A stretch of DNA of 45,251 nucleotides, taken from sequence record NC_007637.1. One strand, written 5' to 3'. Each line of letters starts with the position of its first letter. Positions within the stretch are counted from its first letter, which is position 1. Positions 744 through 44,657 of this stretch are shown here, piece by piece. A program made the position numbers and the translations under genes. Source of the DNA: Escherichia phage K1E. Below the pieces are notes generated by a model. That model did no database searches. It saw only the letters and a program-made list of their open reading frames with translations, and was not told the DNA's origin.

Positions 744-884
744 AGCAATCACTGAGACGGACCTAGCAAGCTGTCTCAGGTTATAAGTAGGAGAATTGAT
801 GCGTAGGCCGTAGCTAGCGGATGTAGTCGCATGAAGGCTTGAGCAAGGGGCCGTTTAATACCTTCTTCCTCTGGAGACAAAGCT

Positions 885-915
885 TATAACATTGCTCTTT
901 AACAATTTGCTTAGT
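885..915 (+). promoter_or_regulatory. Early-region repeated element, copy 1 (core GCTCTTTAACAAT, 894..906)
   Basis: One of four copies of a conserved 13-14 nt core lying between early genes; candidate RNA processing or regulatory site. Confidence 0.35.
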
Positions 916-6823: not shown

Positions 6824-6846
6824 ATTTACCGGACACTATAGGATAG
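6824..6846 (+). promoter_or_regulatory. SP6-type phage promoter (+1 G at 6841)
   Basis: ATTTACCGGACACTATAGGATAG; the transcript would begin with hairpin ccgtc-gga-gacgg. Confidence 0.75.
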
Positions 6847-25758: not shown

Positions 25759-26496
25759 ATGCCTGTAATTAGACAAACCAGTAAAGTAGGACATATGATG
25801 GAAGATGTGGCCTTCCAGATTATTGATAGTAAGCTGGAAGCGGTAAACTTGTGTATGCGAGCTATTGGTCGTGAGGGTGTGGATTCTCTCGACTCAGGTG
25901 ACTTGGACGCAGAAGATGCAAGCAAGATGATCGACATCGTATCCCAGCGATTCCAGTACAACAAAGGAGGTGGCTGGTGGTTCAATCGTGAACCAAACTG
26001 GCAGATTGCACCTGATACCAATGGTGAAGTCAATCTACCTAACAACTGCCTAGCAGTATTGCAGTGTTATGCTTTGGGTGAGAAGAAAGTACCCATGACT
26101 ATGCGAGCAGGTAAGCTCTACTCTACATGGAGTCATACCTTTGATATGCGTAAGCATGTGAATGCTAATGGTATGATTCGTCTTACCTTACTTACCTTAC
26201 TTCCATATGAGCATCTACCTACTAGTGTAATGCAGGCTATTGCCTATCAAGCTGCTGTAGAGTTTATTGTGTCTAAGGATGCAGATCAGACTAAGCTAGC
26301 CACTGCACAGCAGATTGCCACTCAGCTTCTAATGGATGTGCAATCAGAACAAATGTCACAAAAGCGATTGAATATGCTTGTACATAATCCTACGCAGCGT
26401 CAGTTCGGTATTATGGCAGGTGGTTCTCAGAATGTACCTGCTTACTCTCATTCACCATATGACAGTTGGGCACTTCGTCCGTGGGAGGATCGTTAA
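25759..26496 (+). CDS. Tail tubular protein A (T7 gp11-like, 245 aa)
   Basis: Track ORF trimmed to ATG 25759 (AGGAGG upstream); ...IGREGVDSLDSGDLDAEDASKMIDIVSQRFQYNKGGGWWFN resembles T7 gp11. Confidence 0.7.
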   Translation: MPVIRQTSKVGHMMEDVAFQIIDSKLEAVNLCMRAIGREGVDSLDSGDLDAEDASKMIDIVSQRFQYNKGGGWWFNREPNWQIAPDTNGEVNLPNNCLAVLQCYALGEKKVPMTMRAGKLYSTWSHTFDMRKHVNANGMIRLTLLTLLPYEHLPTSVMQAIAYQAAVEFIVSKDADQTKLATAQQIATQLLMDVQSEQMSQKRLNMLVHNPTQRQFGIMAGGSQNVPAYSHSPYDSWALRPWEDR

Positions 26497-28898
26497 TGGA
26501 AGTACAAGGTTCATTAGGGAGGCAAATCCAAGGGATTAGCCAGCAACCTCCAGCGGTACGTCTTGATGGTCAATGTACGACTATGGTGAACATGGTCCCT
26601 GATGTAGTGAATGGAACTCAATCCCGCATGGGTACAACTCACATTGCTAAGCTCTTGGATGAAGGTACAGATAATATGGCAACGCACCATTATCGCAGGG
26701 GTGAGGGGGATGAAGAGTATTTCTTCACCTTAAAGAAGGGGCAAGTGCCAGAGATATTTGATAAGCATGGACGCAAGTGCAATGTCATCTCTCAAGATGC
26801 ACCTATGACCTACCTTTCTGAAGTTGTTAACCCTAGGGAAGATGTGCAATTCATGACTATAGCTGATGTTACTTTTATGCTTAACCGTAGGAAAGTGGTT
26901 AAAGTTAGTAATAGGAAGTCACCTAAAGTTGGAGATAAAGCCATTGTGTTTTGTGCATATGGTCAATACGGTACATCTTATTCTATCATAATTAATGGAA
27001 CTACAGCTGCTAGTTTTAAAACACCAGATGGGGGAAGTGCAGAACATGTTGAACAAATACGAACGGAACGTATCACTTCTGAATTGTACTCCAAGTTGCA
27101 GCAATGGAGTGGTGTGAATGACTATGAAATACAAAGAGATGGTACGAGCATATTTATAGAGAGACGCGATGGTAAAAGTTTCACAGTAACAACTACCGAT
27201 GGTGCAAAAGGTAAGGACTTAGTGGCTATCAAGAATAAAGTTAGCTCTACTGACCTACTCCCTTCTCGTGCGCCTGCTGGTTATAAAGTACAAGTGTGGC
27301 CTACTGGCAGCAAACCTGAGTCTCGTTACTGGCTGCAAGCTGAGCCTAAAGAGGGAAACCTTGTGTCTTGGAAAGAAACAATAGCTGCTGATGTATTACT
27401 TGGGTTTGATAAAGGCACAATGCCTTACATTATTGAACGTACAGGTATCATCGACGGCATAGCTCAATTCAAGATAAGACAAGGTGATTGGGAAGATCGT
27501 AAAGTAGGGGATGACTTGACTAACCCTATGCCCTCTTTTATTGATGAGGAAGTACCCCAGACAATAGGTGGAATGTTCATGGTGCAGAACCGCCTATGCT
27601 TTACAGCAGGTGAAGCGGTTATTGCTTCTCGTACATCATACTTCTTCGATTTCTTTCGTTATACGGTTATCTCTGCATTGGCAACTGACCCATTTGATAT
27701 TTTCTCAGATGCGAGTGAAGTCTACCAGCTAAAACATGCAGTGACCTTAGATGGCGCTACCGTATTGTTCTCTGATAAGTCACAATTCATACTGCCAGGA
27801 GATAAGCCTTTAGAGAAGTCAAATGCATTGCTTAAGCCTGTTACAACATTTGAAGTGAACAATAAAGTGAAGCCAGTAGTAACTGGTGAATCGGTAATGT
27901 TTGCCACTAATGATGGTTCTTACTCTGGTGTACGAGAGTTCTATACGGACTCTTATAGTGACACTAAGAAGGCACAAGCAATCACAAGTCATGTGAATAA
28001 ACTCATCGAAGGTAACATTACCAACATGGCAGCAAGCACCAATGTCAATAGGCTACTTGTCACTACTGATAAGTATCGTAACATAATTTACTGCTATGAT
28101 TGGTTATGGCAAGGTACAGACCGTGTACAATCAGCATGGCATGTATGGGAGTGGCCTATGGGTACAAAGGTGCGAGGTATGTTTTATTCTGGTGAATTAC
28201 TTTATCTACTCCTTGAGCGAGGCGATGGCGTCTATCTGGAGAAGATGGACATGGGTGATGCACTAACCTATGGTTTGAATGACCGCATCAGAATGGATAG
28301 GCAAGCAGAGTTGATCTTCAAGCATTTTAAAGCAGAAGATGAATGGATATCTGAACCACTTCCTTGGACTCCTACTAACCCAGAACTTTTGGATTGCATC
28401 TTAATAGAAGGGTGGGATTCATATATTGGAGGTTCTTTCCTGTTCAAATATAAACCTAGTGATAACACCTTGTCTACAACCTTTGACATGCATGATGATA
28501 ACCACGTAAAAGCGAAGGTTATTGTTGGTCAGATTTACCCTCAAGAGTTTGAACCTACACCTGTAGTTATCAGAGATAGGCAAGACCGTGTATCCTATAT
28601 TGATGTACCTGTTGTGGGGTTGGTTCACCTTAATCTTGATATGTATCCTGATTTCTCCGTGGAAGTTAAGAATGTGAAGAGTGGTAAAGTACGCAGGGTG
28701 CTAGCGTCAAACCGTATAGGTGGTGCTCTCAACAACACAGTAGGTTATGTTGAACCAAGGGAGGGTGTCTTCAGATTCCCACTGAGGGCTAAGAGTACGG
28801 ATGCTGTTTATCGTATTATTGTAGAATCACCTCATACATTCCAGCTTCGCGATATTGAGTGGGAAGGGAGCTACAATCCAACCAAAAGGAGGGTCTAA
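26496..28898 (+). CDS. Tail tubular protein B (T7 gp12-like, 800 aa)
   Basis: Track ORF trimmed to ATG 26496 (TAATG overlap, GGGAGG upstream); GISQQP motif near the N-terminus as in T7 gp12. Confidence 0.8.
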   Translation: MEVQGSLGRQIQGISQQPPAVRLDGQCTTMVNMVPDVVNGTQSRMGTTHIAKLLDEGTDNMATHHYRRGEGDEEYFFTLKKGQVPEIFDKHGRKCNVISQDAPMTYLSEVVNPREDVQFMTIADVTFMLNRRKVVKVSNRKSPKVGDKAIVFCAYGQYGTSYSIIINGTTAASFKTPDGGSAEHVEQIRTERITSELYSKLQQWSGVNDYEIQRDGTSIFIERRDGKSFTVTTTDGAKGKDLVAIKNKVSSTDLLPSRAPAGYKVQVWPTGSKPESRYWLQAEPKEGNLVSWKETIAADVLLGFDKGTMPYIIERTGIIDGIAQFKIRQGDWEDRKVGDDLTNPMPSFIDEEVPQTIGGMFMVQNRLCFTAGEAVIASRTSYFFDFFRYTVISALATDPFDIFSDASEVYQLKHAVTLDGATVLFSDKSQFILPGDKPLEKSNALLKPVTTFEVNNKVKPVVTGESVMFATNDGSYSGVREFYTDSYSDTKKAQAITSHVNKLIEGNITNMAASTNVNRLLVTTDKYRNIIYCYDWLWQGTDRVQSAWHVWEWPMGTKVRGMFYSGELLYLLLERGDGVYLEKMDMGDALTYGLNDRIRMDRQAELIFKHFKAEDEWISEPLPWTPTNPELLDCILIEGWDSYIGGSFLFKYKPSDNTLSTTFDMHDDNHVKAKVIVGQIYPQEFEPTPVVIRDRQDRVSYIDVPVVGLVHLNLDMYPDFSVEVKNVKSGKVRRVLASNRIGGALNNTVGYVEPREGVFRFPLRAKSTDAVYRIIVESPHTFQLRDIEWEGSYNPTKRRV

Positions 28899-29620
28899 TG
28901 GCTATAGGTTCAGCCGTTATGGCTGGTATGTCTTCTATTGGTAGCATGTTTGCAGGCAGTGGTGCAGCAGCCGCTGCTGGAGGTGCTGCCGCAGGTGGCG
29001 GAGGTTTGCTAGGTTCACTAGGTGGATTCCTAAGTGGCTCCACTGCTGGTTTCTCTAATGCTGGCCTTCTTGGTGCTGGCCTTCAAGGGTTAGGCTTGAT
29101 TGGTGATCTATTTGGTGGAAGTGATGAAGCCAAGGCGATGAAGAAAGCACAAGAAGAGCAATGGCGGCAGCAGCTTATTGCTACACAAGAGGCGTACAAG
29201 ACAGTGGCAGACGCAGAACGTTCTGCTGCTAAACAATATCATGCAGATGCAATCAGTAATCAGGCTTCACTGCTACAGCAGCGAGCACAGGTTGCATTAC
29301 TTGCTGGGGCTACTGGTACTGGTGGTAATTCTGTGTCCTCTATGCTTAATGACTTAGCAGCAGATGGCGGCAGGAACCAGAGTACCATCATTGATAACTA
29401 TGAGAATCAGAAGATTAATTTCACCAACCAACTTAAGTCTATCCAACGTGGTGGTCAGATGCAGATGCGTGAGTTTAAGAAGCCTTCTGCTATGAGTACC
29501 TTGGTTCAAGGTATTCCAAGTCTGGCATCTGCCTATGTAACTGGTAGTAAGTCTGGCAAGGCATTGGGTAAAGCCTTAACTGATTCTCGTACATATTCAT
29601 CTGGAACAAGAGGTATTTAA
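28898..29620 (+). CDS. Internal virion protein, Gly/Ala-rich (240 aa)
   Basis: Track ORF trimmed to ATG 28898 (TAATG overlap, AAAGGAGGG upstream); position matches the T7 gp13/gp14 region. Confidence 0.55.
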   Translation: MAIGSAVMAGMSSIGSMFAGSGAAAAAGGAAAGGGGLLGSLGGFLSGSTAGFSNAGLLGAGLQGLGLIGDLFGGSDEAKAMKKAQEEQWRQQLIATQEAYKTVADAERSAAKQYHADAISNQASLLQQRAQVALLAGATGTGGNSVSSMLNDLAADGGRNQSTIIDNYENQKINFTNQLKSIQRGGQMQMREFKKPSAMSTLVQGIPSLASAYVTGSKSGKALGKALTDSRTYSSGTRGI

Positions 29621-32568
29621 TGGCAATTGAGCGACAAGCAGTACAAGGTCTGCCACAAGTGCAGGCCACTTCTCCTAATGTCATGACCTTTGCACCTCAA
29701 CAAGTGGGAGGTGTGGAGGCTGGCGTGGCTTCTACCTCCGGTAGTAGGTTTATCGAAGACCTTATTCGTGCAGCCAGCAGTGTGGCTGATGTTACCACTG
29801 GTATCCTTAATCAGAAGATTGAGGAAGATAAGGTTGTTCAAATGGAACGGGCATATAACGGACTAATGCCTTCTGAGGATGCAACTCGTGGTGGCGCTCG
29901 TGCTAACATGCTTGTCAAAGCTCAACTGCTAGCTAATGATGAAGCAGCACGAATGAAAGACATGGCTACTCGTTTCCAAGGGACGGATGACGAGTGGACA
30001 CAACTTATGGTTGACTCTCGTAATGAGATGCAGAATAAGCTGTTCCAGCAATACCCTGAGTTGCAAGGTGACAAAGATACTATGCGTATGGTCACTAATG
30101 TCTTCCAAGAACAGCAGCCTCAGATTTGGGCTACACGAACCCAGCATAAACTTGACCGTGAACAAGCAGACCGGGAGGATACCTTTGACGGGCGAGTGGC
30201 TTCTACTTGGGATCCTAATATTGACCCTGAAGCATCTGGCTATGCTTTACAGGAACGAATCCGCGAAGGTCTTACTCAAGGATTACTACCTGAACAGATG
30301 CACAAGAAGTTAGTCCAGCGAGCAATTTCACTTGCACAAGGCGGTGATGTTAGCATGGCTGAAGCCCTGAAGTATGTGAAGGACGATAAGGGTGTTTCTG
30401 TTTATGCTAAGAATCCACAGCTTATCACAGCCATCACTAGTGGTAATGCAGTTTGGGCTAGGAATAATGTAGCTGATGTAACTCGTATGTCTTTCGAAGT
30501 TAAAGAATCATACCTTGCAGGTGATTTAACTGATGAAGAATTGTTGGAACGAGCACAGCACATTAATAATCTGACAGGTAACTCTGTCTTCTCTAATCCA
30601 GAACTAGAGGCACTGATGCGCCAACGGGCTAAGCAGAATGCAGAGCTAGGTGCAATGCAGGATATGCGACGTGAGCTTTACTCCGACCGCCTGACTGGCT
30701 TCCAAGGTAAGACTGATAAAGAGAAGAAGGCTTACATTGATGTTATCAAACAGGATAGCCAACTTTATGCAGACCAGCAAATCAAACAACGTGGCTTGGA
30801 CCCTTACAGTCAAGAGGCTGAAGCTATTCGTGGTGCAGTGGAAGTGCAGCGCCTGCAATTCATGAACTCCAAAGGTTTAGTGGATGATACCTTTGAATCT
30901 CGTATCAAGGCTATGGAATCCATGCTATCACCTGAGCACTTTGCTAAAGGTGAACCACAGGAGTTAATGACCATTCGTCAGTTGTGGGAGCAGTTACCTG
31001 AAGAAAGTCGAGGTGTCTTCGGTGACACTGTGAACGGTTATATGGATAACTACAATACTGCATTACAAATGGGAGAGACACCTTTGCAGGCTGCAAGGTT
31101 TGCCCGTGAAGCACAGCAGAAATTCTCTCGTACTGAGAAGGAAACCAAGAAGTTCAACTCCGCTATTGGAGATGCACTGGATGAGGTATCTGGTGCTGGC
31201 TGGTTTGATGGTAAAACCGAGGTGTCAGACTTAGGTAAAGCTATTGCGGAAGAAGAGTTACGAGCTAAGGCCAATATGTTGTGGTCTAGCGGTATGCGTA
31301 ACATGGATTCTATCAAGAAGGCTTTAATCACTTGGGGCAATAAACGCTACACTCAATCAGAGGATGCAAAGACTTCCGGTGGCTATTTCATTAAAGGTGA
31401 TTACACTTCTGCATCTGATATGCTTATGTCAGTTGGGAAAGGTGTAAACCCTACCGATGTCCCTCTGGCGCTTGGTAGGTATGTAGAAACACAGATGCCA
31501 GAATTGAAGAAGGAGCTTCAAGAGTGGGAAACTAAGGATGATGTGTACATTGATTACAATGAACAGAAAGGAACTTTTGTGATTCGTGCTGGTGCAGCAG
31601 GTCGCCCTCTTTCTGGAGTAATCCCTGTAACTTCTTTGGATACCACTTCACTACTGGATTCTGCCTATCAGAAGAAAGTAGAAGAACGAGATAAAGGCGA
31701 GTATGTTCATCCCTATCGTACAGATATCGGTGCACAAGAACCAATGCCAGCTAAGCCAACTGCCAAAGATATTGGTAAATTAGGATTAGCTAACTTCCTC
31801 ATGTCTTCTGCTTTTGCTTCTGGTGAGAATCTACCTTCTAACTTCGAGATTAACTATCGAGGCAATATGCAACAATTCTATGACAAGCTAGCTATGGATG
31901 AGAATAAAGATAAAGTTGGCTTTAATAAGGCAACTGGAACCTTTACTCCATATAAAGACGCTCACGGTGAGTCTATCGGTTACGGTCATTTCTTAACGGA
32001 AGAAGAGAAGCGAGACGGGTATATTAAGATTGGCGATGAACTAGTTCCCTATCGAGGGTCTATGTCTCAGCTTACAGAGAGTAAGGCTCGCGCTCTTATG
32101 GAGCAAGATGCTAGGAAGCATGTGCCTCCTACTCGTGACTGGAAGATTCCGTTTGACCAGATGCATCCTGCACAGCAACGTGGCTTGATGGATTTAACCT
32201 ACAATTTAGGTAAAGGTGGAATCCAGAACTCACCGCGTGCTCTTGCTGCATTCAAAGCTGGTAAGCTTACGGAAGGCTTTATCGAAATGCTGGGTACTGC
32301 ATCAAGTGAAGGTAAACGTATTCCGGGCCTACTGAAGCGACGCGCTGAGGCATACAATATGGCAGCTGCTGGTGGTGTACCTAAGATCACAGAAGTGGAG
32401 ACGAGGGAAGATGGCTCTATGTGGGTTAAGTTTGGTGGACCTATGCCAGCAGGCTCTGTTTCTGCGTGGACGCATAAACGTATTGGAGCCGATGGCTGGT
32501 ATCAGGTTTATGAGGCTGCACCTACCAAGTTAGCTAAAGACTCTAAGGTAGGTAAAGTTAAATTGTAG
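29620..32568 (+). CDS. Internal virion protein with C-terminal lysozyme-like (T4 lysozyme/GH24-type) domain (982 aa)
   Basis: GESIGYGHFLTEEEK, QRGLMDLTYNLGKGG and KRIPGLLKRRAEAYN parallel T4 lysozyme (YYTIGIGHLLTK, RCALINMVFQMGETG, NRAKRVITTFRTG). Confidence 0.65.
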   Translation: MAIERQAVQGLPQVQATSPNVMTFAPQQVGGVEAGVASTSGSRFIEDLIRAASSVADVTTGILNQKIEEDKVVQMERAYNGLMPSEDATRGGARANMLVKAQLLANDEAARMKDMATRFQGTDDEWTQLMVDSRNEMQNKLFQQYPELQGDKDTMRMVTNVFQEQQPQIWATRTQHKLDREQADREDTFDGRVASTWDPNIDPEASGYALQERIREGLTQGLLPEQMHKKLVQRAISLAQGGDVSMAEALKYVKDDKGVSVYAKNPQLITAITSGNAVWARNNVADVTRMSFEVKESYLAGDLTDEELLERAQHINNLTGNSVFSNPELEALMRQRAKQNAELGAMQDMRRELYSDRLTGFQGKTDKEKKAYIDVIKQDSQLYADQQIKQRGLDPYSQEAEAIRGAVEVQRLQFMNSKGLVDDTFESRIKAMESMLSPEHFAKGEPQELMTIRQLWEQLPEESRGVFGDTVNGYMDNYNTALQMGETPLQAARFAREAQQKFSRTEKETKKFNSAIGDALDEVSGAGWFDGKTEVSDLGKAIAEEELRAKANMLWSSGMRNMDSIKKALITWGNKRYTQSEDAKTSGGYFIKGDYTSASDMLMSVGKGVNPTDVPLALGRYVETQMPELKKELQEWETKDDVYIDYNEQKGTFVIRAGAAGRPLSGVIPVTSLDTTSLLDSAYQKKVEERDKGEYVHPYRTDIGAQEPMPAKPTAKDIGKLGLANFLMSSAFASGENLPSNFEINYRGNMQQFYDKLAMDENKDKVGFNKATGTFTPYKDAHGESIGYGHFLTEEEKRDGYIKIGDELVPYRGSMSQLTESKARALMEQDARKHVPPTRDWKIPFDQMHPAQQRGLMDLTYNLGKGGIQNSPRALAAFKAGKLTEGFIEMLGTASSEGKRIPGLLKRRAEAYNMAAAGGVPKITEVETREDGSMWVKFGGPMPAGSVSAWTHKRIGADGWYQVYEAAPTKLAKDSKVGKVKL

Positions 32569-32582
32569 TACCTAACTCAAGG

Positions 32583-32604
32583 CTTGTCTCACATGTGAGA
32601 CAGG
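32583..32604 (+). terminator. Palindromic hairpin (core GTCTCACATGTGAGAC, 32586..32601); terminator-like
   Basis: cttgtctcacatgtgagacagg followed by tcttta. Confidence 0.5.
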
Positions 32605-32632
32605 TCTTTATGATAGGCACTATGGAGGAACT

Positions 32633-35600
32633 ATGGAACAAGATATTAAGACTAATTGGGCTGGATATGTCCAGTCTACTCCTGAGCCGTTTTCTATTGA
32701 GGCGGCTCCGGTATCGGCTCCTACGATACGCCAGCGTAATGAGTTACAAGAGCAAGTTCTTGAAGCCAAAGCTGATGCGGACATCTTAGGTGCTGTAGGT
32801 GCTGCCTTCCAGAATGAATGGTTGGCATTCGGAGGTAAGCGATGGTATGACCGTGCCACTGCTGATTTCACACCCCAACCTGACTTTGAAATCCAACCAG
32901 AGCAACGTGAAGCACTACGTTTCAAATATGGTACGGATATGATGCAGACAATCACTGAGGGTGTTCGTTCTGAGGATGAATTGAACTTCCGTATTCAGAA
33001 TGCTGATGAAGACCTTGAGCGCAATAAGCGCATTGCTCAGGCTGGATGGGCCGGCTCTGTGGCAACGATTGGCGCTGCTGTGCTTGACCCAGTGGGTTGG
33101 GTTGCCTCTATTCCAACCGGTGGTGCAGCTAAAGTTGGACTCGTAGGCCGTGCTGTGCGTGGCGCTATCGCCGCTGGCGTGAGTAATGCCGCTATTGAAT
33201 CCGTATTGGTCCAAGGTGACATGACTCGTGATTTAGATGACATTATGGTAGCACTAGGTTCCGGTATGGCTATGGGTGGCGTTATTGGAGCTGTAGCGCG
33301 TGGTAGGGCCACTAAGCTCAGTGAGCAAGGGGATGACAGGGCTGCGAGCATTGTGCGCAGTGCAGACGCAGGGGACCGCTATGTGCGTGCTGTTGCTGAT
33401 GACAGTATCGGTGCGATGCGTGTTAAGGGCGAAGAGGTACTCACTGAGGGTGCATTTGATATCTCTAGCAAAGGTGAAGATTTGCTGAAAACCCTACAGC
33501 GGGAAGGTAATGCAATTGATATGACACCTCGCCGCTGGGCCGGAACTATGTCTGCCCTTGGGACTGTCGTGCACTCCTCTCAGGATGCTAGTGTTCGTGG
33601 CCTCGGTGCTCGCCTGTTTGAGTCTCCGCAAGGTTTAGGTATGCAAAAGGCATCTGCCAGTCTTATGCAGAATACCAACTTGAATCGACTGAAGTCTGCT
33701 GATATGAACCGTTTCAATGACGGGTTTGACTTATGGCTCAAAGAAAATAATATCAATCCAGTTGCAGGCCATACTAACTCTCACTATGTGCAGCAATATA
33801 ATGAGAAGGTATGGGAAGCTGTACGCATCGGTATGGATGAGGCTACGCCTAAGTCTATCCGTATGGCAGCAGAGGGGCAGCAAGCTATGTATCGTGAAGC
33901 ATTAGCATTACGTCAACGCTCTGGTGAAGCTGGGTTTGAAAAGGTTAAAGCAGATGATAAGTACATGCCTGATATTTTTGACAGTATGAAGGCTCGTCGT
34001 CAATTCGGTATGCACGATAAAGAAGATATCATTGAGTTATTCTCTCGTGCTTATCAGAACGGCGCTCGTAAAATTCCAAAAGAAGTAGCGGATGAAATTG
34101 CACGAGCACAAGTAAACCGTGTTGTGGATGCCACTCTGACAGGACGTATGAGTTTCGAAAAGGCTATGTCTGGTCAGACTAAAGCAGAGTATGAAGCAAT
34201 AATGCGCAAGGCAGGCTTCAGTGATGAAGAAATTGAAAAGATGGTAGAAGCTCTGGATAATAAAGAAACCAAAGATAATATCTCTAACCGAGCTAAGATG
34301 AGTTTAGGCTTAGATGTTACTCAAGAGTACAATGGCATTCGTATGCGTGACTTTATGAATACTAACGTGGAAGAGTTAACAGATAACTACATGAAGGAAG
34401 CGGCAGGTGGTGCTGCCTTGGCTCGTCAAGGTTTCTCTACCTATCAGGCTGCACTTAATGCAATTGACCTTGTAGAGCGAAATGCACGAAATGCAGCTAA
34501 AGATACAAAAGCACACGCACAATTTGAAGCGGAGTCTGCTAAGATTCGTCAATCAGAGCCTGATTACAAGAAGGCACAAGAGAAGATTGAAGAGCTAAAG
34601 AAGCGACTTAAATTGAAAGAGAAAGATGAAGCAGCAGGTCTGGCTATTGATGAAGAAATCCGTCAGATGCGAGAAGGGCTTCGCTTGATTATGGGTAAAT
34701 CTATCGATGCAGACCCACAGGCTTTGTCTACTAAAATGCTGCGTCGTGGTCGTGACATCACAGGCGTACTTCGCTTAGGTCAGATGGGTTTCGCACAGCT
34801 AGGTGAACTTGCTAACTTCATGGGTGAGTTTGGTATTGCTGCAACCACTATAGCTTTAGGTAAGCAATTCCGCTTTACATCTAAGGCTTTGCGGAGCGGT
34901 GATGGCTTCTTCCGAGATAAGAACTTGGCAGAAGTAGAGAGGATGGTAGGTTACATTGGTGAGGATAACTGGCTAACAACCAAGGGTGCACGTCCAGATG
35001 AGTTTGGTGATGTAACCACAGTAAAAGGAATGATGGCTCACTTTGACCAATCCATGAACTCAATACGTCGTGCTCAAACCAACCTATCACTCTTCCGCAT
35101 GGCACAGGGTTCTCTGGAGCGAATGACCAATAGGCAAATAGCTTTGTCTTTCATTGACCACCTTGAAGGCAAGAAGATTATTCCTCAGAAGAAACTGGAG
35201 GAACTTGGTCTTACTCAGGAGTTCATGACTAACCTACAGAAGCACTATGATGCTAACTCTAAAGGTTCTGGCTTGCTTGGCTTTGATACAATGCCTTATG
35301 CCATGGGTGAAACTTTAGCTAATGCTATTCGTCGTAAGTCAGGTCTAATTATCCAACGTAACTTCATTGGTGATGAAGGTATCTGGATGAACAAAGCACT
35401 AGGTAAGACATTTGCACAGCTTAAGTCATTCTCTCTTGTATCTGGTGAGAAGCAATTTGGTCGAGGGATTCGCCACGATAAAATTGGTCTTGCTAAGAAG
35501 ACAGCTTACGGGTTTGCTTTGGGTTCAATAGTGTATGCGGCAAAAGCCTATGTGAACTCTATTGGGCGAGAAGACCAAGATGAATATTTGGAAGAGAAGT

Positions 35601-35941
35601 TATCGCCTAAAGGGTTGGCCTTTGGTGCAATGGGTATGATGAGTACAACTGCTGTATTTAGTCTAGGTGGAGATTTCTTAGGTGGCCTAGGTGTTCTACC
35701 TTCTGAGTTAGTACAATCCCGTTATGAGGCTGGCTTTCAGACTAAAGGTTTGATAGACCAAATACCACTAGTAGGTGTTGGTCAAGATGCATATCGTTTA
35801 GCAGATTCTATAACTAAATATGCAGAGGGTGATACAGAAGGTGTAGATGTGGCACGTAGGGCTTTACGCTTAGTGCCTCTAACTAATGTAATAGGAATCC
35901 AGAACGCATTGCGTTATGGCTTAGATGAACTGGAGGATTGA
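32633..35941 (+). CDS. Large internal virion protein (T7 gp16-like ejection protein, 1102 aa)
   Basis: GGAGG RBS; size and position between the lysozyme-domain protein and the tail-fiber adaptor. Confidence 0.6.
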   Translation: MEQDIKTNWAGYVQSTPEPFSIEAAPVSAPTIRQRNELQEQVLEAKADADILGAVGAAFQNEWLAFGGKRWYDRATADFTPQPDFEIQPEQREALRFKYGTDMMQTITEGVRSEDELNFRIQNADEDLERNKRIAQAGWAGSVATIGAAVLDPVGWVASIPTGGAAKVGLVGRAVRGAIAAGVSNAAIESVLVQGDMTRDLDDIMVALGSGMAMGGVIGAVARGRATKLSEQGDDRAASIVRSADAGDRYVRAVADDSIGAMRVKGEEVLTEGAFDISSKGEDLLKTLQREGNAIDMTPRRWAGTMSALGTVVHSSQDASVRGLGARLFESPQGLGMQKASASLMQNTNLNRLKSADMNRFNDGFDLWLKENNINPVAGHTNSHYVQQYNEKVWEAVRIGMDEATPKSIRMAAEGQQAMYREALALRQRSGEAGFEKVKADDKYMPDIFDSMKARRQFGMHDKEDIIELFSRAYQNGARKIPKEVADEIARAQVNRVVDATLTGRMSFEKAMSGQTKAEYEAIMRKAGFSDEEIEKMVEALDNKETKDNISNRAKMSLGLDVTQEYNGIRMRDFMNTNVEELTDNYMKEAAGGAALARQGFSTYQAALNAIDLVERNARNAAKDTKAHAQFEAESAKIRQSEPDYKKAQEKIEELKKRLKLKEKDEAAGLAIDEEIRQMREGLRLIMGKSIDADPQALSTKMLRRGRDITGVLRLGQMGFAQLGELANFMGEFGIAATTIALGKQFRFTSKALRSGDGFFRDKNLAEVERMVGYIGEDNWLTTKGARPDEFGDVTTVKGMMAHFDQSMNSIRRAQTNLSLFRMAQGSLERMTNRQIALSFIDHLEGKKIIPQKKLEELGLTQEFMTNLQKHYDANSKGSGLLGFDTMPYAMGETLANAIRRKSGLIIQRNFIGDEGIWMNKALGKTFAQLKSFSLVSGEKQFGRGIRHDKIGLAKKTAYGFALGSIVYAAKAYVNSIGREDQDEYLEEKLSPKGLAFGAMGMMSTTAVFSLGGDFLGGLGVLPSELVQSRYEAGFQTKGLIDQIPLVGVGQDAYRLADSITKYAEGDTEGVDVARRALRLVPLTNVIGIQNALRYGLDELED

Positions 35942-37107: not shown

Positions 37108-37390
37108 ACATGCAGCTACAGAAGATGAGGTTGGCATCCTGCATGGTGCTATTACCAAAATCTTTAATAAGAAAGCACAGGCAATACTGGACACTATAGA
37201 AGAAGACCCAGATGCAGCACTGCATTTAGTCTCTGGTAAAGACATTGGAGCTATGTGTAAGTGGGTTCTTGATAATGGTATTACCGCTACACCTGCTGCA
37301 CAGCAGGAGGAGTCCAAGCTATCTAAGCGCCTCAAGGCTATCCGAGAGGCATCAAGTGGCAAGATTATTCAATTCACTAAGGAGGATTGA
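37091..37390 (+). CDS. Putative terminase small subunit (99 aa from GTG start)
   Basis: Track ORF starts at TTG 37046 inside the holin gene; proposed start is GTG 37091 with GGAGG 7 nt upstream; position matches T7 gene 18. Confidence 0.45.
   Translation: MSVHNKHAATEDEVGILHGAITKIFNKKAQAILDTIEEDPDAALHLVSGKDIGAMCKWVLDNGITATPAAQQEESKLSKRLKAIREASSGKIIQFTKED
37182..37204 (+). promoter_or_regulatory. Weak SP6-type promoter-like sequence inside coding sequence (+1 G at 37199)
   Basis: CAATACTGGACACTATAGAAGAA; perfect core with mismatches at -17 to -15. Confidence 0.4.
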
Positions 37391-38556
37391 TGGCTAAGGC
37401 AAGAGAATCACAAGCGGAGGCTCTTGCCAGATGGGAGATGCTACAGGAGTTACAGCAGACCTTTCCTTACACAGCGGAAGGTTTGCTTCTCTTTGCAGAC
37501 ACAGTTATTCATAACTTAATTGCAGGCAACCCTCATCTGATTCGTATGCAGGCTGATATCTTGAAGTTCCTATTCTACGGACACAAGTATCGCCTCATCG
37601 AAGCGCCTCGTGGTATCGCTAAGACAACACTATCAGCAATCTATACAGTATTCCGTATCATTCATGAACCGCATAAGCGTATCATGGTTGTATCCCAAAA
37701 CGCCAAGCGAGCAGAGGAAATCGCAGGTTGGGTAGTTAAAATCTTCCGTGGCCTAGACTTTCTTGAGTTTATGCTACCGGACATCTACGCAGGGGACCGT
37801 GCCTCAGTTAAGGCATTTGAGATTCATTACACCCTACGTGGCAGTGACAAGTCGCCTTCTGTGTCTTGTTACTCAATCGAAGCAGGTATGCAGGGTGCGC
37901 GTGCAGATATCATCCTAGCAGATGACGTTGAGTCAATGCAGAATGCTCGTACAGCGGCAGGACGTGCCTTGCTTGAGGAACTGACCAAGGAGTTTGAATC
38001 TATTAACCAGTTTGGTGATATTATCTACCTTGGTACTCCTCAGAACGTAAACTCTATCTACAATAACCTACCTGCTCGTGGTTACTCTGTTCGTATCTGG
38101 ACTGCACGTTATCCCTCAGTGGAGCAGGAGCAATGCTATGGTGACTTCCTTGCACCTATGATTGTGCAGGATATGAAGGACAACCCAGCACTTCGCTCAG
38201 GGTATGGCTTGGATGGCAATAGTGGTGCCCCTTGTGCACCTGAAATGTATGATGATGATGTGCTGATTGAGAAGGAAATCTCGCAGGGTGCGGCTAAGTT
38301 CCAGCTTCAGTTCATGCTTAACACTCGCATGATGGATGCTGACCGCTATCCGCTACGCCTGAACAACCTCATCTTCACTTCATTCGGTACAGAGGAAGTC
38401 CCTGTGATGCCTACGTGGAGCAATGATTCCATCAATATTATTGGCGATGCACCGAAGTATGGCAATAAGCCTACAGACTTCATGTATCGACCTGTGGCTC
38501 GCCCGTATGAATGGGGCGCTGTCACTCGTAAGATTATGTATATTGACCCTGCTGGT
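37390..38556 (+). CDS. Terminase large subunit, exon 1 (389 codons)
   Basis: ATG 37390 with AAGGAGG upstream; Walker A-like PRGIAKTT and Walker B ADIILADDVE; similarity to T7 gp19 stops at ...IDPAG, where an insertion begins. Confidence 0.85.
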
Positions 38557-39311
38557 AAACACCTCTGCCAGCGTAAAACCCTCTTAATTCGGTGGAACTC
38601 TCACTGAGACAATACCGAGCGAAGCCTGTTGCAATAACAGGAACGTGTAGAGACTAACTGTAAGGCCAAGCGGTCTGAAACAGAGGGAGGCGCAAGCCTA
38701 AGATATAGTCCGACCTACTAGGTGACTAGTAGAAGTTAAAGTAGCGAATTAACGTAACAATTGAAGGGAGTTAAATATGACAGAGCATAAAGTTTATCAT
38801 ATTCGTGTTGTTGGTGAAACTGATGTAATGCAAGGTTATATTGGTGTAACCTCCGATATTAAGAAGCGTATGAGAGAGCACAAGTGTGCAGGCCGTCTTT
38901 GTGATGGCCGCGAGTACGTTATCTTATTCACTGGTAGCAAAGAAGAGTGTTATGCACTAGAAGAGAAGCTACGCCCACATGACAACATGGGTTGGAATAA
39001 GGGTAAAGGTGGTTATCGCAAAGCAGGTAACATCGAGAAAGGTGAACGCATAAGTATTGCCACTGAAATCAAGAAAGGACAGCACTTGTCTGTTGCCACT
39101 GAGTTCAAGAAAGGCATGACACCTTACAACAAAGGTACTGGCAAAGATTACATATTCACTTCTCCAGATGGTGAAGAGTTTCTTGTAACTTGCATTACTG
39201 ACTTCTGTAAAGAGCACAACCTAACACCTCAGAATATGCGTAAGGTGGCACGTGGTTTACGTAAACACCACAAGGGTTGGCTCGCACGTCACGTTCAAAC
39301 CGGGAGGTAAG
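38557..39311 (+). mobile_element. Group I intron (candidate, self-splicing) carrying a homing endonuclease gene
   Basis: Conserved elements in canonical order: P AATTCGGTGGAA (38586..38597), Q AATACCGAGC (38611..38620), R GTAGAGACTAACTG (38647..38660), S AAGATATAGTCC (38700..38711). P1 pairing of exon GCTGGT (38551..38556) with GCCAGC (38567..38572). The 3' boundary is uncertain: G39311 or G39302. Confidence 0.75.
38777..39310 (+). CDS. GIY-YIG homing endonuclease (I-TevI-like, 177 aa) encoded within the intron
   Basis: AAGGGAG RBS; N-terminal KVYHIRVV...GYIGVTSDIKKRMREH (GIY-YIG with conserved Arg/Glu); central repeated GERISIATEIKKG / HLSVATEFKKG units; basic C-terminal DNA-binding-like region. 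Confidence 0.8.
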   Translation: MTEHKVYHIRVVGETDVMQGYIGVTSDIKKRMREHKCAGRLCDGREYVILFTGSKEECYALEEKLRPHDNMGWNKGKGGYRKAGNIEKGERISIATEIKKGQHLSVATEFKKGMTPYNKGTGKDYIFTSPDGEEFLVTCITDFCKEHNLTPQNMRKVARGLRKHHKGWLARHVQTGR

Positions 39312-40034
39312 AATGGGGATGAAACGGGTGTGGCTATCGTCTTCCTGCACGGCACATTCATTTATGTGTATCAGTGCTTTGGTGTGCCGGGAGGATACCG
39401 CGAATCGTCCCTGAATCGCATTGTGCAGGCCGCAAAGCAGGCAGGTGTTAAAGAGGTATTCATTGAAAAGAACTTTGGTCATGGCGCGTTTGAGGCCGTT
39501 ATAAAGCCATACTTTGAACGAGAGTGGCCTGTGACTCTGGAGGAAGATTACGCCACCGGACAGAAAGAGTTGCGTATCATTGAAACACTAGAGCCACTAA
39601 TGGCGGCCCACAGGCTCATCTTCAACGCAGAGATGGTCAAGTCTGATTTTGAGTCGGTACAGCACTATCCGCTTGAGCTACGCATGTCATACAGCCTTTT
39701 CAATCAAATGTCGAACATCACGATTGAGAAGAACAGCCTACGACACGATGACCGCTTAGACGCTCTGTATGGCGCTATACGGCAATTAACTTCTCAGATA
39801 GACTATGACGAGGTTACACGGATTAATCGCCTCAGAGCGCAGGAGATGCGCGATTACATCCATGCTATGAACACACCTCACCTCCGTAGGGCAATGCTCT
39901 ATGGAGATTATGGCACTGAGCGAAGAGTAACCAACACTTCCGTGGCTATGCAGCAAAGAGTATACGGTCAGAATTACAGGAGTAAATCGGCAAGCAGAAA
40001 TACACTTTCTGCAAGGATTTCAAGGACTTATTAA
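39312..40034 (+). CDS. Terminase large subunit, exon 2 (240 codons; may instead begin at 39303)
   Basis: NGDETGVAIVFLHG...EKNFGHGAFEAV...QKELRIIETLEPLMAAHRLIFN...HDDRLDAL parallels the C-terminal nuclease domain of T7 gp19. Confidence 0.85.
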   Translation, partial: NGDETGVAIVFLHGTFIYVYQCFGVPGGYRESSLNRIVQAAKQAGVKEVFIEKNFGHGAFEAVIKPYFEREWPVTLEEDYATGQKELRIIETLEPLMAAHRLIFNAEMVKSDFESVQHYPLELRMSYSLFNQMSNITIEKNSLRHDDRLDALYGAIRQLTSQIDYDEVTRINRLRAQEMRDYIHAMNTPHLRRAMLYGDYGTERRVTNTSVAMQQRVYGQNYRSKSASRNTLSARISRTY

Positions 40035-40489: not shown

Positions 40490-40777
40490 ATGTCTAAATA
40501 TGGAACCGCAGGTACTGTTACTGGTCAGGCTTTTCGAGTAAAAACTGTACAAACCACTGCAACGGCAATCCCTTTGCCTATTGTTGCTGAAGCAGACCTT
40601 AAGAAGAAAGATCATCCTATCAACATTAAACACCTCTCTGGTAAACAGAAAGGTGCCATGGTTGCTGTAGAGAAAACAGACCAATCCTTGTACATCGCTA
40701 TTGCACGTGGGAGTGAACCCACCGACAAGTGGGATGCAACTACTATGGAGTTGGACCCTGTAACACCTGCGGCTTAA
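40490..40777 (+). CDS. Hypothetical protein (95 aa), paralog of the previous gene
   Basis: AGGAGAG RBS; shared motifs LSGKQKGAMVAV and IAIA. Confidence 0.55.
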   Translation: MSKYGTAGTVTGQAFRVKTVQTTATAIPLPIVAEADLKKKDHPINIKHLSGKQKGAMVAVEKTDQSLYIAIARGSEPTDKWDATTMELDPVTPAA

Positions 40778-40797
40778 TTGTAAAGACGAGGTCAATA

Positions 40798-41142
40798 GTG
40801 CTTAACAAACACTTCAAGCGCCGTGAGTTCGCTTGCCGTTGTGGGTGCGGTACATCCACAGTAGATGCTGAGTTACTACAGGTAGTCACAGATGTACGTG
40901 AGCACTTTGGTGCTCCTGTAGTTATTACTTCTGGACACCGCTGTGCTAAGCACAATGCTAATGTGGGAGGTGCTAAGAACTCCATGCATCTTACTGGTAA
41001 GGCTGCTGACATTAAGGTACAAGGTATTACACCTTACCGTGTATGGTCCTATCTAACAGCACGCTACCCCAATAAATATGGCATTGGGTCTTATCCTAAT
41101 TTCACCCACATTGATGTAAGAGAGGGATGTGCACGATGGTAA
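40798..41142 (+). CDS. Endolysin, zinc peptidase M15-like (114 aa from GTG start)
   Basis: VVITSGHRCAKHNANVGGAKNSMHLTGKAADI...FTHIDV fits the M15 zinc-binding pattern. Track ORF starts at GTG 40729 inside the upstream gene; proposed start is GTG 40798 with GAGG upstream. Confidence 0.6.
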   Translation: MLNKHFKRREFACRCGCGTSTVDAELLQVVTDVREHFGAPVVITSGHRCAKHNANVGGAKNSMHLTGKAADIKVQGITPYRVWSYLTARYPNKYGIGSYPNFTHIDVREGCARW

Positions 41143-41739: not shown

Positions 41740-41818
41740 ATAAGATAGTGCCGTTCTTTTGAGCGGCCTATTACTAGCCAATCTTCATAGGGAGGGTTGG
41801 GAAGTAATAGGAGAGTAT

Positions 41819-42154
41819 ATGGCTAAGTTAACTAAACCCAAGACAACGGGCTTACTACATAGAGATACTGTACTAGCTACCTTATTAGATAATTTACTAT
41901 CTAAAAGGCGTGTTACATTTGAAGGTGTAGTTCCAAGTGAAGATACTAAAATTGAGATAGAAGTACCTACAGCATGGGATTTAGATTCTTCGTGGGCATC
42001 ACTTGTATCATTAAGTACACCTACACTTTGTACAGCTTGGATTACTAAAGTGTCAGATACTAGATTAGAAGTACATGTGTTCCATACAGCACAAGTTGAA
42101 ATAGACATAGATGTAGATGTTTACATTCTAGGTAAACACATTGTCAGTGCGTAA
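41819..42154 (+). CDS. Hypothetical protein (111 aa) upstream of the tailspike gene
   Basis: Track ORF starts at an upstream ATG (41759); ATG 41819 has AGGAGA upstream; AT-rich composition. Confidence 0.45.
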   Translation: MAKLTKPKTTGLLHRDTVLATLLDNLLSKRRVTFEGVVPSEDTKIEIEVPTAWDLDSSWASLVSLSTPTLCTAWITKVSDTRLEVHVFHTAQVEIDIDVDVYILGKHIVSA

Positions 42155-42221: not shown

Positions 42222-44657
42222 ATGATTCAAAGACTAGGTTCTTCATTAGTTAAATTCAAGAGTAAAATAGCAGGTGCAATCTGGCGTAACTTGGATGACA
42301 AGCTCACCGAGGTTGTATCGCTTAAAGATTTTGGAGCCAAAGGTGATGGTAAGACAAACGACCAAGATGCAGTAAATGCAGCGATGGCTTCAGGTAAGAG
42401 AATTGACGGTGCTGGTGCTACTTACAAAGTATCATCTTTACCTGATATGGAGCGATTCTATAACACCCGCTTCGTATGGGAACGTTTAGCAGGTCAACCT
42501 CTTTACTATGTGAGTAAAGGTTTTATCAATGGTGAACTCTATAAAATCACGGATAACCCTTATTACAATGCTTGGCCTCAAGACAAAGCGTTTGTATATG
42601 AGAACGTGATATATGCACCTTACATGGGTAGCGACCGTCATGGTGTTAGTCGTCTGCATGTATCATGGGTTAAGTCTGGTGACGATGGTCAAACATGGTC
42701 TACTCCAGAGTGGTTAACTGATATGCATCCAGATTACCCTACAGTGAACTATCATTGTATGAGTATGGGTGTATGTCGCAACCGTCTGTTTGCCATGATT
42801 GAAACACGTACTTTAGCCAAGAACGAACTAACCAATTGTGCATTGTGGGATCGCCCTATGTCTCGTAGTCTGCATCTTACTGGTGGTATCACTAAGGCTG
42901 CAAATCAGAGATATGCAACAATCCATGTACCTGATCACGGACTCTTCGTTGGTGATTTTGTTAACTTCTCTAACTCTGCGGTAACAGGTGTATCTGGTGA
43001 TATGAAGGTTGCAACAGTAATAGATAAGGACAACTTCACGGTTCTTACACCTAACCAGCAGACTTCAGATTTGAATAACGCTGGAAAGAATTGGCACATG
43101 GGTACTTCTTTCCATAAGTCTCCGTGGCGTAAGACAGATCTTGGTCTAATCCCTCGTGTCACAGAGGTGCATAGCTTTGCTACTATTGATAACAATGGCT
43201 TTGTTATGGGCTATCATCAAGGTGATGTAGCTCCACGAGAAGTTGGGCTTTTCTACTTCCCTGATGCTTTCAATAGCCCATCTAATTATGTTCGTCGTCA
43301 GATACCATCTGAGTATGAACCAGATGCGGCAGAGCCATGCATCAAGTACTATGACGGTGTATTATACCTTATCACTCGTGGTACTCGTGGCGACCGACTA
43401 GGAAGCTCTCTGCATCGTAGTAGAGATATAGGTCAGACTTGGGAGTCACTAAGATTTCCACATAATGTGCATCATACTACTTTACCGTTTGCTAAGGTAG
43501 GAGATGACCTTATTATGTTTGGTTCAGAACGTGCAGAAAATGAATGGGAAGCAGGTGCACCAGATGATCGTTACAAGGCATCTTATCCTCGTACCTTCTA
43601 TGCACGATTGAATGTAAACAATTGGAATGCAGATGATATTGAATGGGTTAACATCACAGACCAAATCTATCAGGGTGACATTGTGAACTCTAGTGTAGGT
43701 GTAGGTTCTGTTGTAGTTAAAGACAGCTTCATTTACTATATCTTTGGTGGTGAAAACCATTTCAACCCAATGACTTATGGTGACAACAAAGACAAAGACC
43801 CATTTAAAGGTCATGGACACCCTACTGATATATACTGCTATAAGATGCAGATTGCAAATGACAATCGTGTATCTCGTAAGTTTACATATGGTGCAACTCC
43901 AGGTCAAGCTATACCTACTTTCATGGGTACTGATGGAATACGAAATATCCCTGCACCTTTGTATTTCTCAGATAACATTGTTACAGAGGATACTAAAGTT
44001 GGACACTTAACACTTAAAGCAAGCACAAGTGCCAATATACGATCTGAAATGCAGATGGAAGGTGAGTATGGCTTTATTGGCAAGTCTGTTCCAAAGGACA
44101 AACCAACAGGTCAACGTTTGATTATTTGTGGTGGAGAAAGGACTTCATCATCTTCAGGTGCACAGATAACTTTGCACGGTTCTAATTCAAGTAAGGCTAA
44201 GCGTATCACTTATAACGGAAACGAGCACCTATTCCAAGGTGCACCAATCATGCCTGCTGTAGATAACCAGTTTGCTGCTGGTGGACCTAGTAACCGATTC
44301 ACTACCATCTACCTAGGCAGTGACCCTGTTACAACTTCAGATGCTGACCACAAGTACGGTATCTCTAGTATTAATACCAAGGTGTTAAAGGCTTGGAGCA
44401 GGGTTGGTTTTAAACAGTATGGTTTGAATAGTGAAGCAGAGAGGAACCTTGATAGCATACACTTCGGTGTCTTGGCTCAGGATATTGTAGCTGCTTTTGA
44501 AGCTGAAGGGTTGGATGCCATTAAGTATGGAATTGTGTCCTTCGAAGAAGGTAGGTATGGTGTGAGATATAGTGAAGTTCTAATCCTAGAGGCTGCCTAT
44601 ACTCGCCATCGTCTTGATAAATTAGAGGAGATGTATGCCACTAATAAAATCAGTTAA
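42222..44657 (+). CDS. Tailspike endosialidase (endo-N-acetylneuraminidase) with C-terminal intramolecular chaperone domain (811 aa)
   Basis: AAGGAGG RBS; sialidase Asp-boxes SGDDGQTW and SRDIGQTW; C-terminal region (about 44300..44657) resembles tailspike chaperone (S74-type) domains; overall sequence recognised from memory as K1-phage endosialidase. Confidence 0.8.
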   Translation: MIQRLGSSLVKFKSKIAGAIWRNLDDKLTEVVSLKDFGAKGDGKTNDQDAVNAAMASGKRIDGAGATYKVSSLPDMERFYNTRFVWERLAGQPLYYVSKGFINGELYKITDNPYYNAWPQDKAFVYENVIYAPYMGSDRHGVSRLHVSWVKSGDDGQTWSTPEWLTDMHPDYPTVNYHCMSMGVCRNRLFAMIETRTLAKNELTNCALWDRPMSRSLHLTGGITKAANQRYATIHVPDHGLFVGDFVNFSNSAVTGVSGDMKVATVIDKDNFTVLTPNQQTSDLNNAGKNWHMGTSFHKSPWRKTDLGLIPRVTEVHSFATIDNNGFVMGYHQGDVAPREVGLFYFPDAFNSPSNYVRRQIPSEYEPDAAEPCIKYYDGVLYLITRGTRGDRLGSSLHRSRDIGQTWESLRFPHNVHHTTLPFAKVGDDLIMFGSERAENEWEAGAPDDRYKASYPRTFYARLNVNNWNADDIEWVNITDQIYQGDIVNSSVGVGSVVVKDSFIYYIFGGENHFNPMTYGDNKDKDPFKGHGHPTDIYCYKMQIANDNRVSRKFTYGATPGQAIPTFMGTDGIRNIPAPLYFSDNIVTEDTKVGHLTLKASTSANIRSEMQMEGEYGFIGKSVPKDKPTGQRLIICGGERTSSSSGAQITLHGSNSSKAKRITYNGNEHLFQGAPIMPAVDNQFAAGGPSNRFTTIYLGSDPVTTSDADHKYGISSINTKVLKAWSRVGFKQYGLNSEAERNLDSIHFGVLAQDIVAAFEAEGLDAIKYGIVSFEEGRYGVRYSEVLILEAAYTRHRLDKLEEMYATNKIS

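Follow-up and report, generated by a model that had tools for sequence, protein, structure and literature searches.

What does a lysozyme do at the end of a large structural protein of a bacteriophage? This question is raised by gene 35 of Escherichia phage K1E (NC_007637.1; the window analysed here is the whole stretch of 45,251 nucleotides), which encodes a protein of 982 amino acids with a lysozyme-like segment near its C-terminus. The product of this gene is very probably the ejection protein that occupies the gp15 position in a K1E/K1-5-type podovirus (Vectrevirus), and its last quarter a GH24 muramidase that serves entry into the host. The feature is already known: the arrangement is textbook knowledge for SP6/K1-5/K1E and for the phiKMV-like phages, and the domain swap relative to T7 is covered in reviews.

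Gene 35 among the ejection protein genes

Gene 35 (29620..32568, + strand) belongs to a run of structural genes in which a nozzle gene (PF25675) is followed by a gene of the T7_gp14 family (PF24072), gene 35 itself and a gp16-like gene (PHROG 342). The gene directly upstream, gene 34 (28859..29620, + strand), encodes the gp14-like internal virion protein B (Pfam PF24072 T7_gp14, E 5e-33); translation probably begins only at the ATG at 28898, where an ATGA overlap is visible and which gives the published length of 240 amino acids for K1E gp34 (PMC8954989). Downstream lies gene 36 (32633..35941, + strand), which encodes the gp16-like ejection protein of 1102 amino acids. A location downstream of the nozzle and between the gp14-like and gp16-like genes is characteristic of proteins of the phiKMV gp36 type, as are a length of ~900–1000 amino acids and a muralytic domain within the last ~300 residues; the gene 35 product, with 982 amino acids and the domain at residues 746–917, shares all these features. 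The product matches PHROG 4290 (‘lysozyme domain-containing protein’) over its full length, and K1E gp35 is listed with the same 982 amino acids in the literature (PMC8954989). The gp15 position and this listing bear out the view of the sequence-only reading that the carrier of the domain is an internal virion protein, namely, internal virion protein C or the periplasmic-tunnel protein.

The label ‘gp15 homologue’ is based on gene order and on published work. Pairwise BLASTP, a weak test in this case, detected no similarity between the gene 35 product and T7 gp15 (E 1.1), and in the same type of comparison the N-terminal part showed no homology to either T7 gp15 or phiKMV gp36. Proteins of the gp15 type are known to lose all recognizable sequence similarity as they diverge (PMC4819975). 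The N-terminal ~745 amino acids (29620..31854, + strand) contain no recognizable enzymatic domain, and there is no Pfam match in the protein outside of residues 776–910; gene order and published work suggest that this large portion would form the tunnel or the core.

The genome as a whole is that of a Vectrevirus, with a terminase intron as in the published phage K1E and with the gp35 and gp36 lengths of 982 and 1102 amino acids, respectively. A promoter-like string, CACTATGG, at 32618 in the spacer between genes 35 and 36 was rejected as a promoter: its upstream half differs from the 11 good phage-promoter copies of the genome (ATTTACTGGACACTATAGAAG), and it overlaps with the ribosome-binding site of gene 36.

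The lysozyme domain and its catalytic residues

The match to the Pfam family Phage_lysozyme (PF00959) spans amino acids 776–910 of the gene 35 product (nt 31945..32349) and profile positions 9–124 of 125, with an E-value of 3.9e-10 and a score of 40.6 bits, well above the gathering cutoff of 22.3 bits. The sequence-only reading had placed a lysozyme-like domain in this 982-amino acid ORF at 31930..32360 (amino acids 771–914) and had proposed a profile search of residues ~770..910; the match is significant and falls almost exactly on that span. The start, however, has to be moved upstream. The complete GH24 (T4/P22-type) lysozyme catalytic domain comprises amino acids 746–917 (31855..32370, + strand), with the first helix at residues ~746–762 (nt 31855 onward), and the codon of Glu761, the predicted catalytic glutamate, lies 28 nt upstream of 31930. 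Likewise, the placement of the domain in the C-terminal part holds insofar as it resides in the last quarter of the protein, but it is not terminal: another ~65 residues follow (amino acids 918–982; 32371..32565, + strand). This conserved extension consists mostly of beta strands, occurs only in the SP6/Vectrevirus-type homologues and has no structural relative.

When the protein was compared with all PDB sequences using phmmer, T4 lysozyme (T4L) was the sole match (E 0.003; amino acids 777–890 aligned to T4L 17–133). A search of the PDB with an alignment profile retrieved T4L at ~1e-26, but this result is circular, given that the query alignment included a T4L row, and is not counted. The AlphaFold2 (AF2) model of the domain shows the two-lobed alpha+beta lysozyme fold expected of GH24; the input alignment of this model contained 37 rows, 36 of them natural homologues and one T4L (a sequence that is one residue short), so that the model has some dependence on T4L. 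The homologues were collected in an exhaustive search of representatives, which gave 302 matches, compared with three proteins from a word-indexed search with amino acids 721–982. Among the 153 relatives listed, 33 are at least 700 amino acids long and carry the domain in the C-terminal part.

The catalytic signatures of T4 lysozyme that the sequence-only reading had recognized can be assigned to individual residues. The predicted general acid is Glu761 (GAG codon at 31900..31902, + strand), which aligns with T4L Glu11 in a MAFFT sequence alignment. This column is occupied by glutamate in all 79 homologues aligned there, and the AF2 model places the residue at the C-terminal end of the first helix (helix 12–28). 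The stretch from Asp780 to Ser785 (D-A-H-G-E-S; 31957..31974, + strand), directly before the GYGH motif, contains the equivalents of T4L Asp20 and Thr26 in the HMMER alignment, which pairs the YKD around Asp780 with the YKD of T4L; the codons were confirmed. These two positions are less strictly maintained, with an aspartate or a glutamate at the first in 71 of the 129 homologues and a threonine or a serine at the second in 107 of 142; the serine that the gene 35 product has in place of Thr26 is a conservative change. The catalytic glutamate and aspartate are separated by 19 residues, compared with nine in T4L, due to an inserted hairpin of ~10 residues; this spacing and the serine are departures from T4L that weigh against the muramidase reading. 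Judging by the alignments, Glu761, Asp780 and Ser785 would correspond to Glu11, Asp20 and Thr26 of T4L, with a predicted active-site geometry. The strict conservation of Glu761, together with the largely kept acidic and hydroxyl positions, argues for selection on catalysis.

Muralytic domains on the ejection proteins of other phages

In phage T7, the comparable activity belongs to a soluble lytic transglycosylase-type (SLT) domain at the N-terminus of gp16, and the sequence-only reading had noted that both the type of the domain and its place differ in K1E. This contrast is confirmed. The positive control, T7 gp16, yields an SLT match at residues 15–127 with E 1.7e-31, whereas no SLT match (PF01464, Pfam) was detected on the product of either gene 35 or gene 36. 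The gene 36 product shows no Pfam family match at all. Its relationship to gp16 comes from PHROG 342, which it covers at profile positions 162–1227 only, and from BLASTP against T7 gp16 (E 1e-7), where query residue 89 is aligned with T7 residue 275, an offset of ~186 residues. The combination of a gene 36 product without SLT and a GH24 domain on the gene 35 product implies that the latter replaces the N-terminal SLT of T7 gp16, and published work assigns to gp35 of both K1E and K1-5 the lysozyme activity that resides on gp16 in T7 (PMC8954989). The inferred job is the same in both cases, local cleavage of peptidoglycan by an ejected core protein for the trans-envelope channel; the differences lie in the fold family (SLT versus GH24), the chemistry, the carrier (gp16 versus the gp15-position protein) and the N-terminal location in T7.

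The closest known system is the gene 35 product of phage K1-5 (YP_654136.1, 982 amino acids), an orthologue of the same length that is encoded between genes 34 and 36, with 96.9% nucleotide identity over the full length, and is annotated in RefSeq as ‘lysozyme domain-containing protein’. The SP6 orthologue (NP_853596.1) is called gp35 or gp36 depending on the numbering. There is essentially no difference between the K1E protein and these orthologues beyond a few percent of substitutions, and none of the substitutions in the 97%-identical cluster representative (P0004) affects Glu761, Asp780 or Ser785. That the K1-5 and SP6 proteins are present in the virion and muralytic is taken from the literature: a review lists both among the virion-associated lysozymes, citing Moak and Molineux 2004 (PMC5380687). 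Published cryo-EM and reviews are likewise the source for a location in the virion core and for ejection in K1E and K1-5 (PMC5380687, PMC8954989).

The same architecture and gene position, with a T4-lysozyme-like domain at the end, are found in phiKMV gp36 (898 amino acids, NP_877475.1), Ar-KM gp42 and the OEP protein of PhiM1. In BLASTP, the K1E protein shares with phiKMV gp36 only the 15-residue motif YKDAxGxSxGxGH (E 0.003). The phiKMV-like proteins among the matches end 1–11 residues after the domain, in contrast to the gene 35 product with its 65 additional residues. The phiKMV domain, gp36C, has been demonstrated experimentally to be muralytic and thermostable (PMC5380687), and in PhiM1 and the phiKMV-like phage Ar-KM, cryo-EM locates such lysozyme domains on an octameric gp15-like core protein. 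PhiM1 TEP and the annotation of phiKMV gp37 suggest that in some of these phages the gp16-like protein bears a muralytic-like domain as well; no such domain was found by Pfam on the gene 36 product. A 2026 preprint on Autographivirales, in which 127 of the 205 genomes analysed have an identifiable ejectosome muralytic domain, assigns 31 of these 127 to the configuration ‘C-terminus of the periplasmic-tunnel protein’.

Other GH24 enzymes are employed differently. The endolysins P22 gp19, DLP12 RrrD, phage 21 R21 and T4 gpe are free-standing lysis enzymes of ~150–165 amino acids, some with SAR signals; the gene 35 domain differs from these in being fused to a 745-amino acid virion protein part, in the ~10-residue hairpin between Glu and Asp and in a sequence identity of only 17–24%. 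The tail lysozyme of T4, gp5, is likewise a virion-borne GH24 domain used at entry (PMC5380687), but it belongs to the baseplate spike of a contractile tail instead of being ejected from a capsid core, and its lysozyme domain is located mid-protein.

Proposed role at entry and competing explanations

Most likely, the lysozyme domain perforates the cell wall locally at the time of DNA ejection. By analogy with T7, phiKMV and PhiM1, gp35 would be packaged in the internal core atop the portal and expelled at infection through the tail before the DNA, along with gp34 and gp36; once in the periplasm, it would refold and form part of the trans-envelope tunnel. The lysozyme domains, facing outward, would then open a way for the tunnel through the peptidoglycan by local hydrolysis of MurNAc-beta-1,4-GlcNAc bonds, with Glu761 acting as the putative general acid and Asp780 and Ser785 presumably positioning the water. 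The same analogies suggest that the activity may be required only under certain conditions.

The domain could also have a second use at the end of the infection cycle, if late gp35 that was not packaged reached the periplasm through the holin lesions and aided, or provided, lysis. An older proposal holds that SP6 has a single muralytic gene for both entry and lysis, and the muralytic domain of T7 gp16 can evolve to offset the loss of T7 lysozyme (PMC2680503). The genome, however, encodes a separate enzyme of the M15 peptidase family in the endolysin position (Peptidase_M15_3, E 9.9e-33; ORF 40729..41142); its K1-5 counterpart is annotated as the endolysin and adjoins the holin and Rz-like spanin genes, and in the genome note on phage phD2B, lysis in that phage group is likewise attributed to an M15 lytic peptidase. 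Therefore, gene 35, which sits in the structural operon and not in the lysis cassette, is not needed as a lysis enzyme. Moreover, gp35 has neither a signal sequence nor a SAR-like hydrophobic segment, the best 20-residue window containing only 14 residues out of 20 from the set A, I, L, M, F, V, W, G. A dual use is thus unlikely, although it is the least improbable of the alternatives.

A different chemistry appears still less plausible: instead of being a hydrolase, the domain with its GH24 fold might act as a lytic transglycosylase, with 1,6-anhydro-MurNAc as the product, as in lambda R and T7 gp16. The least credible of the alternatives is that the domain is now mainly structural and determines the shape of the internal core and the course of the packaged DNA, while its catalytic role at entry is small or absent. 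Some room for this view comes from T7, where the muralytic activity of gp16 is said to have been found dispensable under optimal conditions by Moak and Molineux in 2000. The invariant catalytic glutamate and the largely retained acidic and hydroxyl positions in the homologues speak against a purely structural role, as does the inclusion of the K1-5 and SP6 orthologues among the virion-associated lysins in two publications (PMC5380687, PMC8954989).

For the preferred reading, a muramidase that acts at entry, the practical value of the present analysis is modest: it locates the catalytic residues and the domain borders exactly, at the level of both residues and nucleotides, and flags the C-terminal add-on. 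As thermostable enzybiotics, virion-associated lysins like gp35 hold some interest, as phiKMV gp36C has done. For phage biology, there is nothing new in this finding: as already described in reviews and cryo-EM studies, podoviruses vary in a mosaic fashion as to which ejection protein bears the enzyme that cuts the wall, with an SLT domain on gp16 in T7 and, in the lineages of SP6/K1E and phiKMV, a GH24 domain on the protein in the gp15 position.

Gene 35 and its genomic setting

The order of genes around the 982-aa ORF (gene 35; 29620..32568) is that of the T7-supergroup podoviruses: before it come a gene for a nozzle protein (26466..28898; PF25675, E 2.4e-177) and a T7 gp14-family gene that ends at 29620 (PF24072, E 5e-33), and after it gene 36, for a gp16-like ejection protein of 1102 aa (32633..35941), and a tail-fibre/adaptor gene. 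The ORF matches 63 phage records in megablast, with coverage of at least 80% in all and identity of 90-99.3%, nearly all of them Escherichia Vectrevirus of the K1E/K1-5 group; the identity to the K1-5 orthologue is 96.9% at the nucleotide level. The lengths published for K1E (gp34, 240 aa; gp35, 982 aa; gp36, 1102 aa; PMC8954989) agree exactly with those of the window's proteins, and the window carries the K1E hallmarks, namely, an endosialidase tailspike, a stub ORF at the position of the second tailspike and an intron-split large terminase gene. Because of these matches, lengths and hallmarks, the ORF is treated here as a K1E-type gene 35.

The endosialidase gene (42222..44657; End_beta_propel, E 2.1e-222) is full-length, encoding 811 aa with a Peptidase_S74 chaperone domain. 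Where K1-5 has a second (K5 lyase) tailspike, the window has, before the endosialidase gene, a 131-aa ORF without a Pfam match (41759..42154), which fits the published view that K1E has lost all of that gene except a truncated remnant (PMC5380687). K1-5 has an uninterrupted large terminase gene, whereas here the exons of this gene (37387..38556 and 39303..40034) are split by a 746-bp insertion (38557..39302). The insertion, a group I intron (Rfam RF00028, 38525..38732, 63.6 bits, E 5.8e-14) already reported for K1E (PMC2504315, PMC4246154), contains an ORF (38777..39310) for a homing endonuclease, whose GIY-YIG and I-HmuI NUMOD-like matches are weak and below threshold; among 84 related phage records, 12 have the insertion too, with an annotated homing endonuclease between two terminase CDSs.

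Sequences resembling the SP6-type phage RNA-polymerase promoter (consensus ATTTACTGGACACTATAGAAG) occur in about eleven copies, all on the plus strand, at 6834, 9352, 13935, 14704, 15942, 19107, 24441, 37192, 40043 and 41727, with a weaker one at 10200. In the spacer between genes 35 and 36, 11 nt past the gene 35 stop, lies a perfect 13-bp stem-loop, GGCUUGUCUCACAUGUGAGACAGGUC (32579..32608; -17.6 kcal/mol, z -4.05 vs shuffles), followed by UCUUUAU; it may serve as a terminator-like or RNA-processing hairpin. The CACTATGG close by, at 32618, departs from the phage-promoter consensus of the genome.

The lysozyme domain of gp35

A sequence-only reading had placed a lysozyme-like domain of gp35 at 31930..32360. 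The profile search bears this out, with gp35 residues 776-910 (nt 31945..32349) matching Pfam PF00959 (Phage_lysozyme) at E 3.9e-10 with 40.6 bits (gathering score 22.3). The match lies inside the proposed range, but the domain itself begins earlier: the first helix, from about nt 31855, and the codon of the predicted catalytic Glu761 (GAG, 31900..31902) lie upstream of the start of that range. T4 lysozyme (T4L) is the single phmmer match among all PDB sequences (E 0.003), with gp35 777-890 paired with T4L 17-133, YKD on YKD and GYGH on GIGH. PHROG 4290 (‘lysozyme domain-containing protein') spans the entire gp35, and residues 777-945 match the endolysin PHROG 7. HMMER, run exhaustively against 1.84 billion representative proteins with residues 740-982 as the query, yielded 302 relatives at E <= 0.001; among the 153 relatives listed, 33 of at least 700 aa have the domain near the C-terminus, so that this architecture is a recurrent class.

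Residues 735-982 were modelled with a mean pLDDT of 95.9 and a pTM of 0.89. The domain is genuine and a member of the T4/P22 lysozyme family, and its predicted structure is somewhat nearer to the P22/lambdoid branch than to T4L itself. In a MAFFT alignment of 36 relatives and the query, to which a T4L row, one residue short, was added, Glu761 pairs with T4L Glu11 and is invariant in 37 of 37 rows; a search of the PDB with the profile of this alignment was disregarded because the T4L row makes it circular. When the 153 listed relatives were aligned to the family HMM, all 79 sequences that reach this column had Glu. In the predicted structure, the first helix (model residues 12-28) has Glu761 at its C-terminal end, equivalent to the position of Glu11 in the T4L structure. 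The HMMER alignment puts Asp780 on T4L Asp20 and Ser785 on Thr26, in columns that hold D/E in 71 of 129 homologues and T/S in 107 of 142, respectively. The T4L catalytic signatures proposed earlier are present, and further family signatures are kept (G789-H790, D830, N862, G864, R907); the alignment is the basis for the predicted geometry of the active site. Between Glu761 and Asp780 lies an insertion of about 10 residues (motif E-N-x4-G-[FY]-[ND]-x3-G-x-[WFY]-x-P-[YH]), typical of the virion-associated subfamily and predicted to form an extra beta hairpin.

Predicted wall-degrading enzymes for entry and exit

In T7 gp16, used as a control, the transglycosylase (SLT) domain was found at residues 15-127 (E 1.7e-31). 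In the 1102 aa of gp36, the Pfam search found no domain and no enzymatic domain was detected, the match to the gp16 PHROG begins only at profile position 162, and residue 89 lies opposite T7 residue 275 in the pairwise alignment; gp36 therefore lacks the muralytic N-terminus, that is, the first ~160-190 residues of T7 gp16, where SLT resides. The strongest conservation between the two is near the C-terminus (aa 922-1048 vs T7 1100-1253, E 1e-7). Domain type and placement differ from T7, as had been proposed: the module here is of another fold family, on the neighbouring protein and at the opposite chain end. With BLASTP, no homology to T7 gp15 could be shown for the N-terminal 745 residues of gp35.

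The Asp/Ser pair of the gp35 domain and its nearest structural neighbours make it unlikely that the domain acts as a transglycosylase and not as a hydrolase, and a role in structure alone is at odds with the strictly conserved catalytic Glu. A dual role in entry and lysis, once suggested for SP6 (PMC2680503), is improbable except perhaps as a minor contribution; a separate Peptidase_M15_3 endolysin (40729..41142, E 9.9e-33), the K1-5 counterpart of which is annotated as endolysin and adjoins holin and spanin genes, makes it unnecessary. This endolysin is a peptidase, not a glycosidase, and hence the genome would carry two different wall-degrading chemistries, for entry and for exit. Since the K1-5 homologue of the endolysin is annotated with 114 aa, the listed GTG start, for 137 aa, probably lies upstream of the real one.

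Proposed role of gp35 in entry

The finding is correct and already known, since the K1-5 gene 35 product is named ‘lysozyme domain-containing protein' in RefSeq, phiKMV gp36, which gp35 resembles in its working, has a purified and characterised C-terminal lysozyme (gp36C), and a 2026 preprint that distinguishes three layouts of muralytic domains in Autographivirales ejectosomes assigns ‘C-terminus of the tunnel protein' to 31 of 127 genomes with an identifiable muralytic domain. The lysozyme activity that T7 has on gp16 is said to be carried by gp35 in K1E and K1-5 (PMC8954989), and the virion-associated lysozymes listed in PMC5380687, citing Moak & Molineux 2004, include K1-5 YP_654136.1 and the SP6 orthologue. 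In PhiM1 and the phiKMV-like Ar-KM, cryo-EM resolved an octameric gp15-like core protein that bears such lysozyme domains; in the assembled tunnel, according to the prediction of the Ar-KM authors, the domains point outward, level with the cell wall.

In the best-supported reading, which draws from this analysis on family, fold, catalytic residues, synteny, the lack of SLT on gp36 and the separate endolysin, gp35 would be packed as part of the core stacked on the portal, expelled before the DNA and reassembled as the periplasmic part of the ejectosome, where its lysozyme domains would cut glycan strands locally, letting the channel reach the inner membrane. By analogy, gp35 may unfold and refold during passage, and its lysozyme domain, like the SLT domain of T7 gp16, may be required only under demanding conditions.
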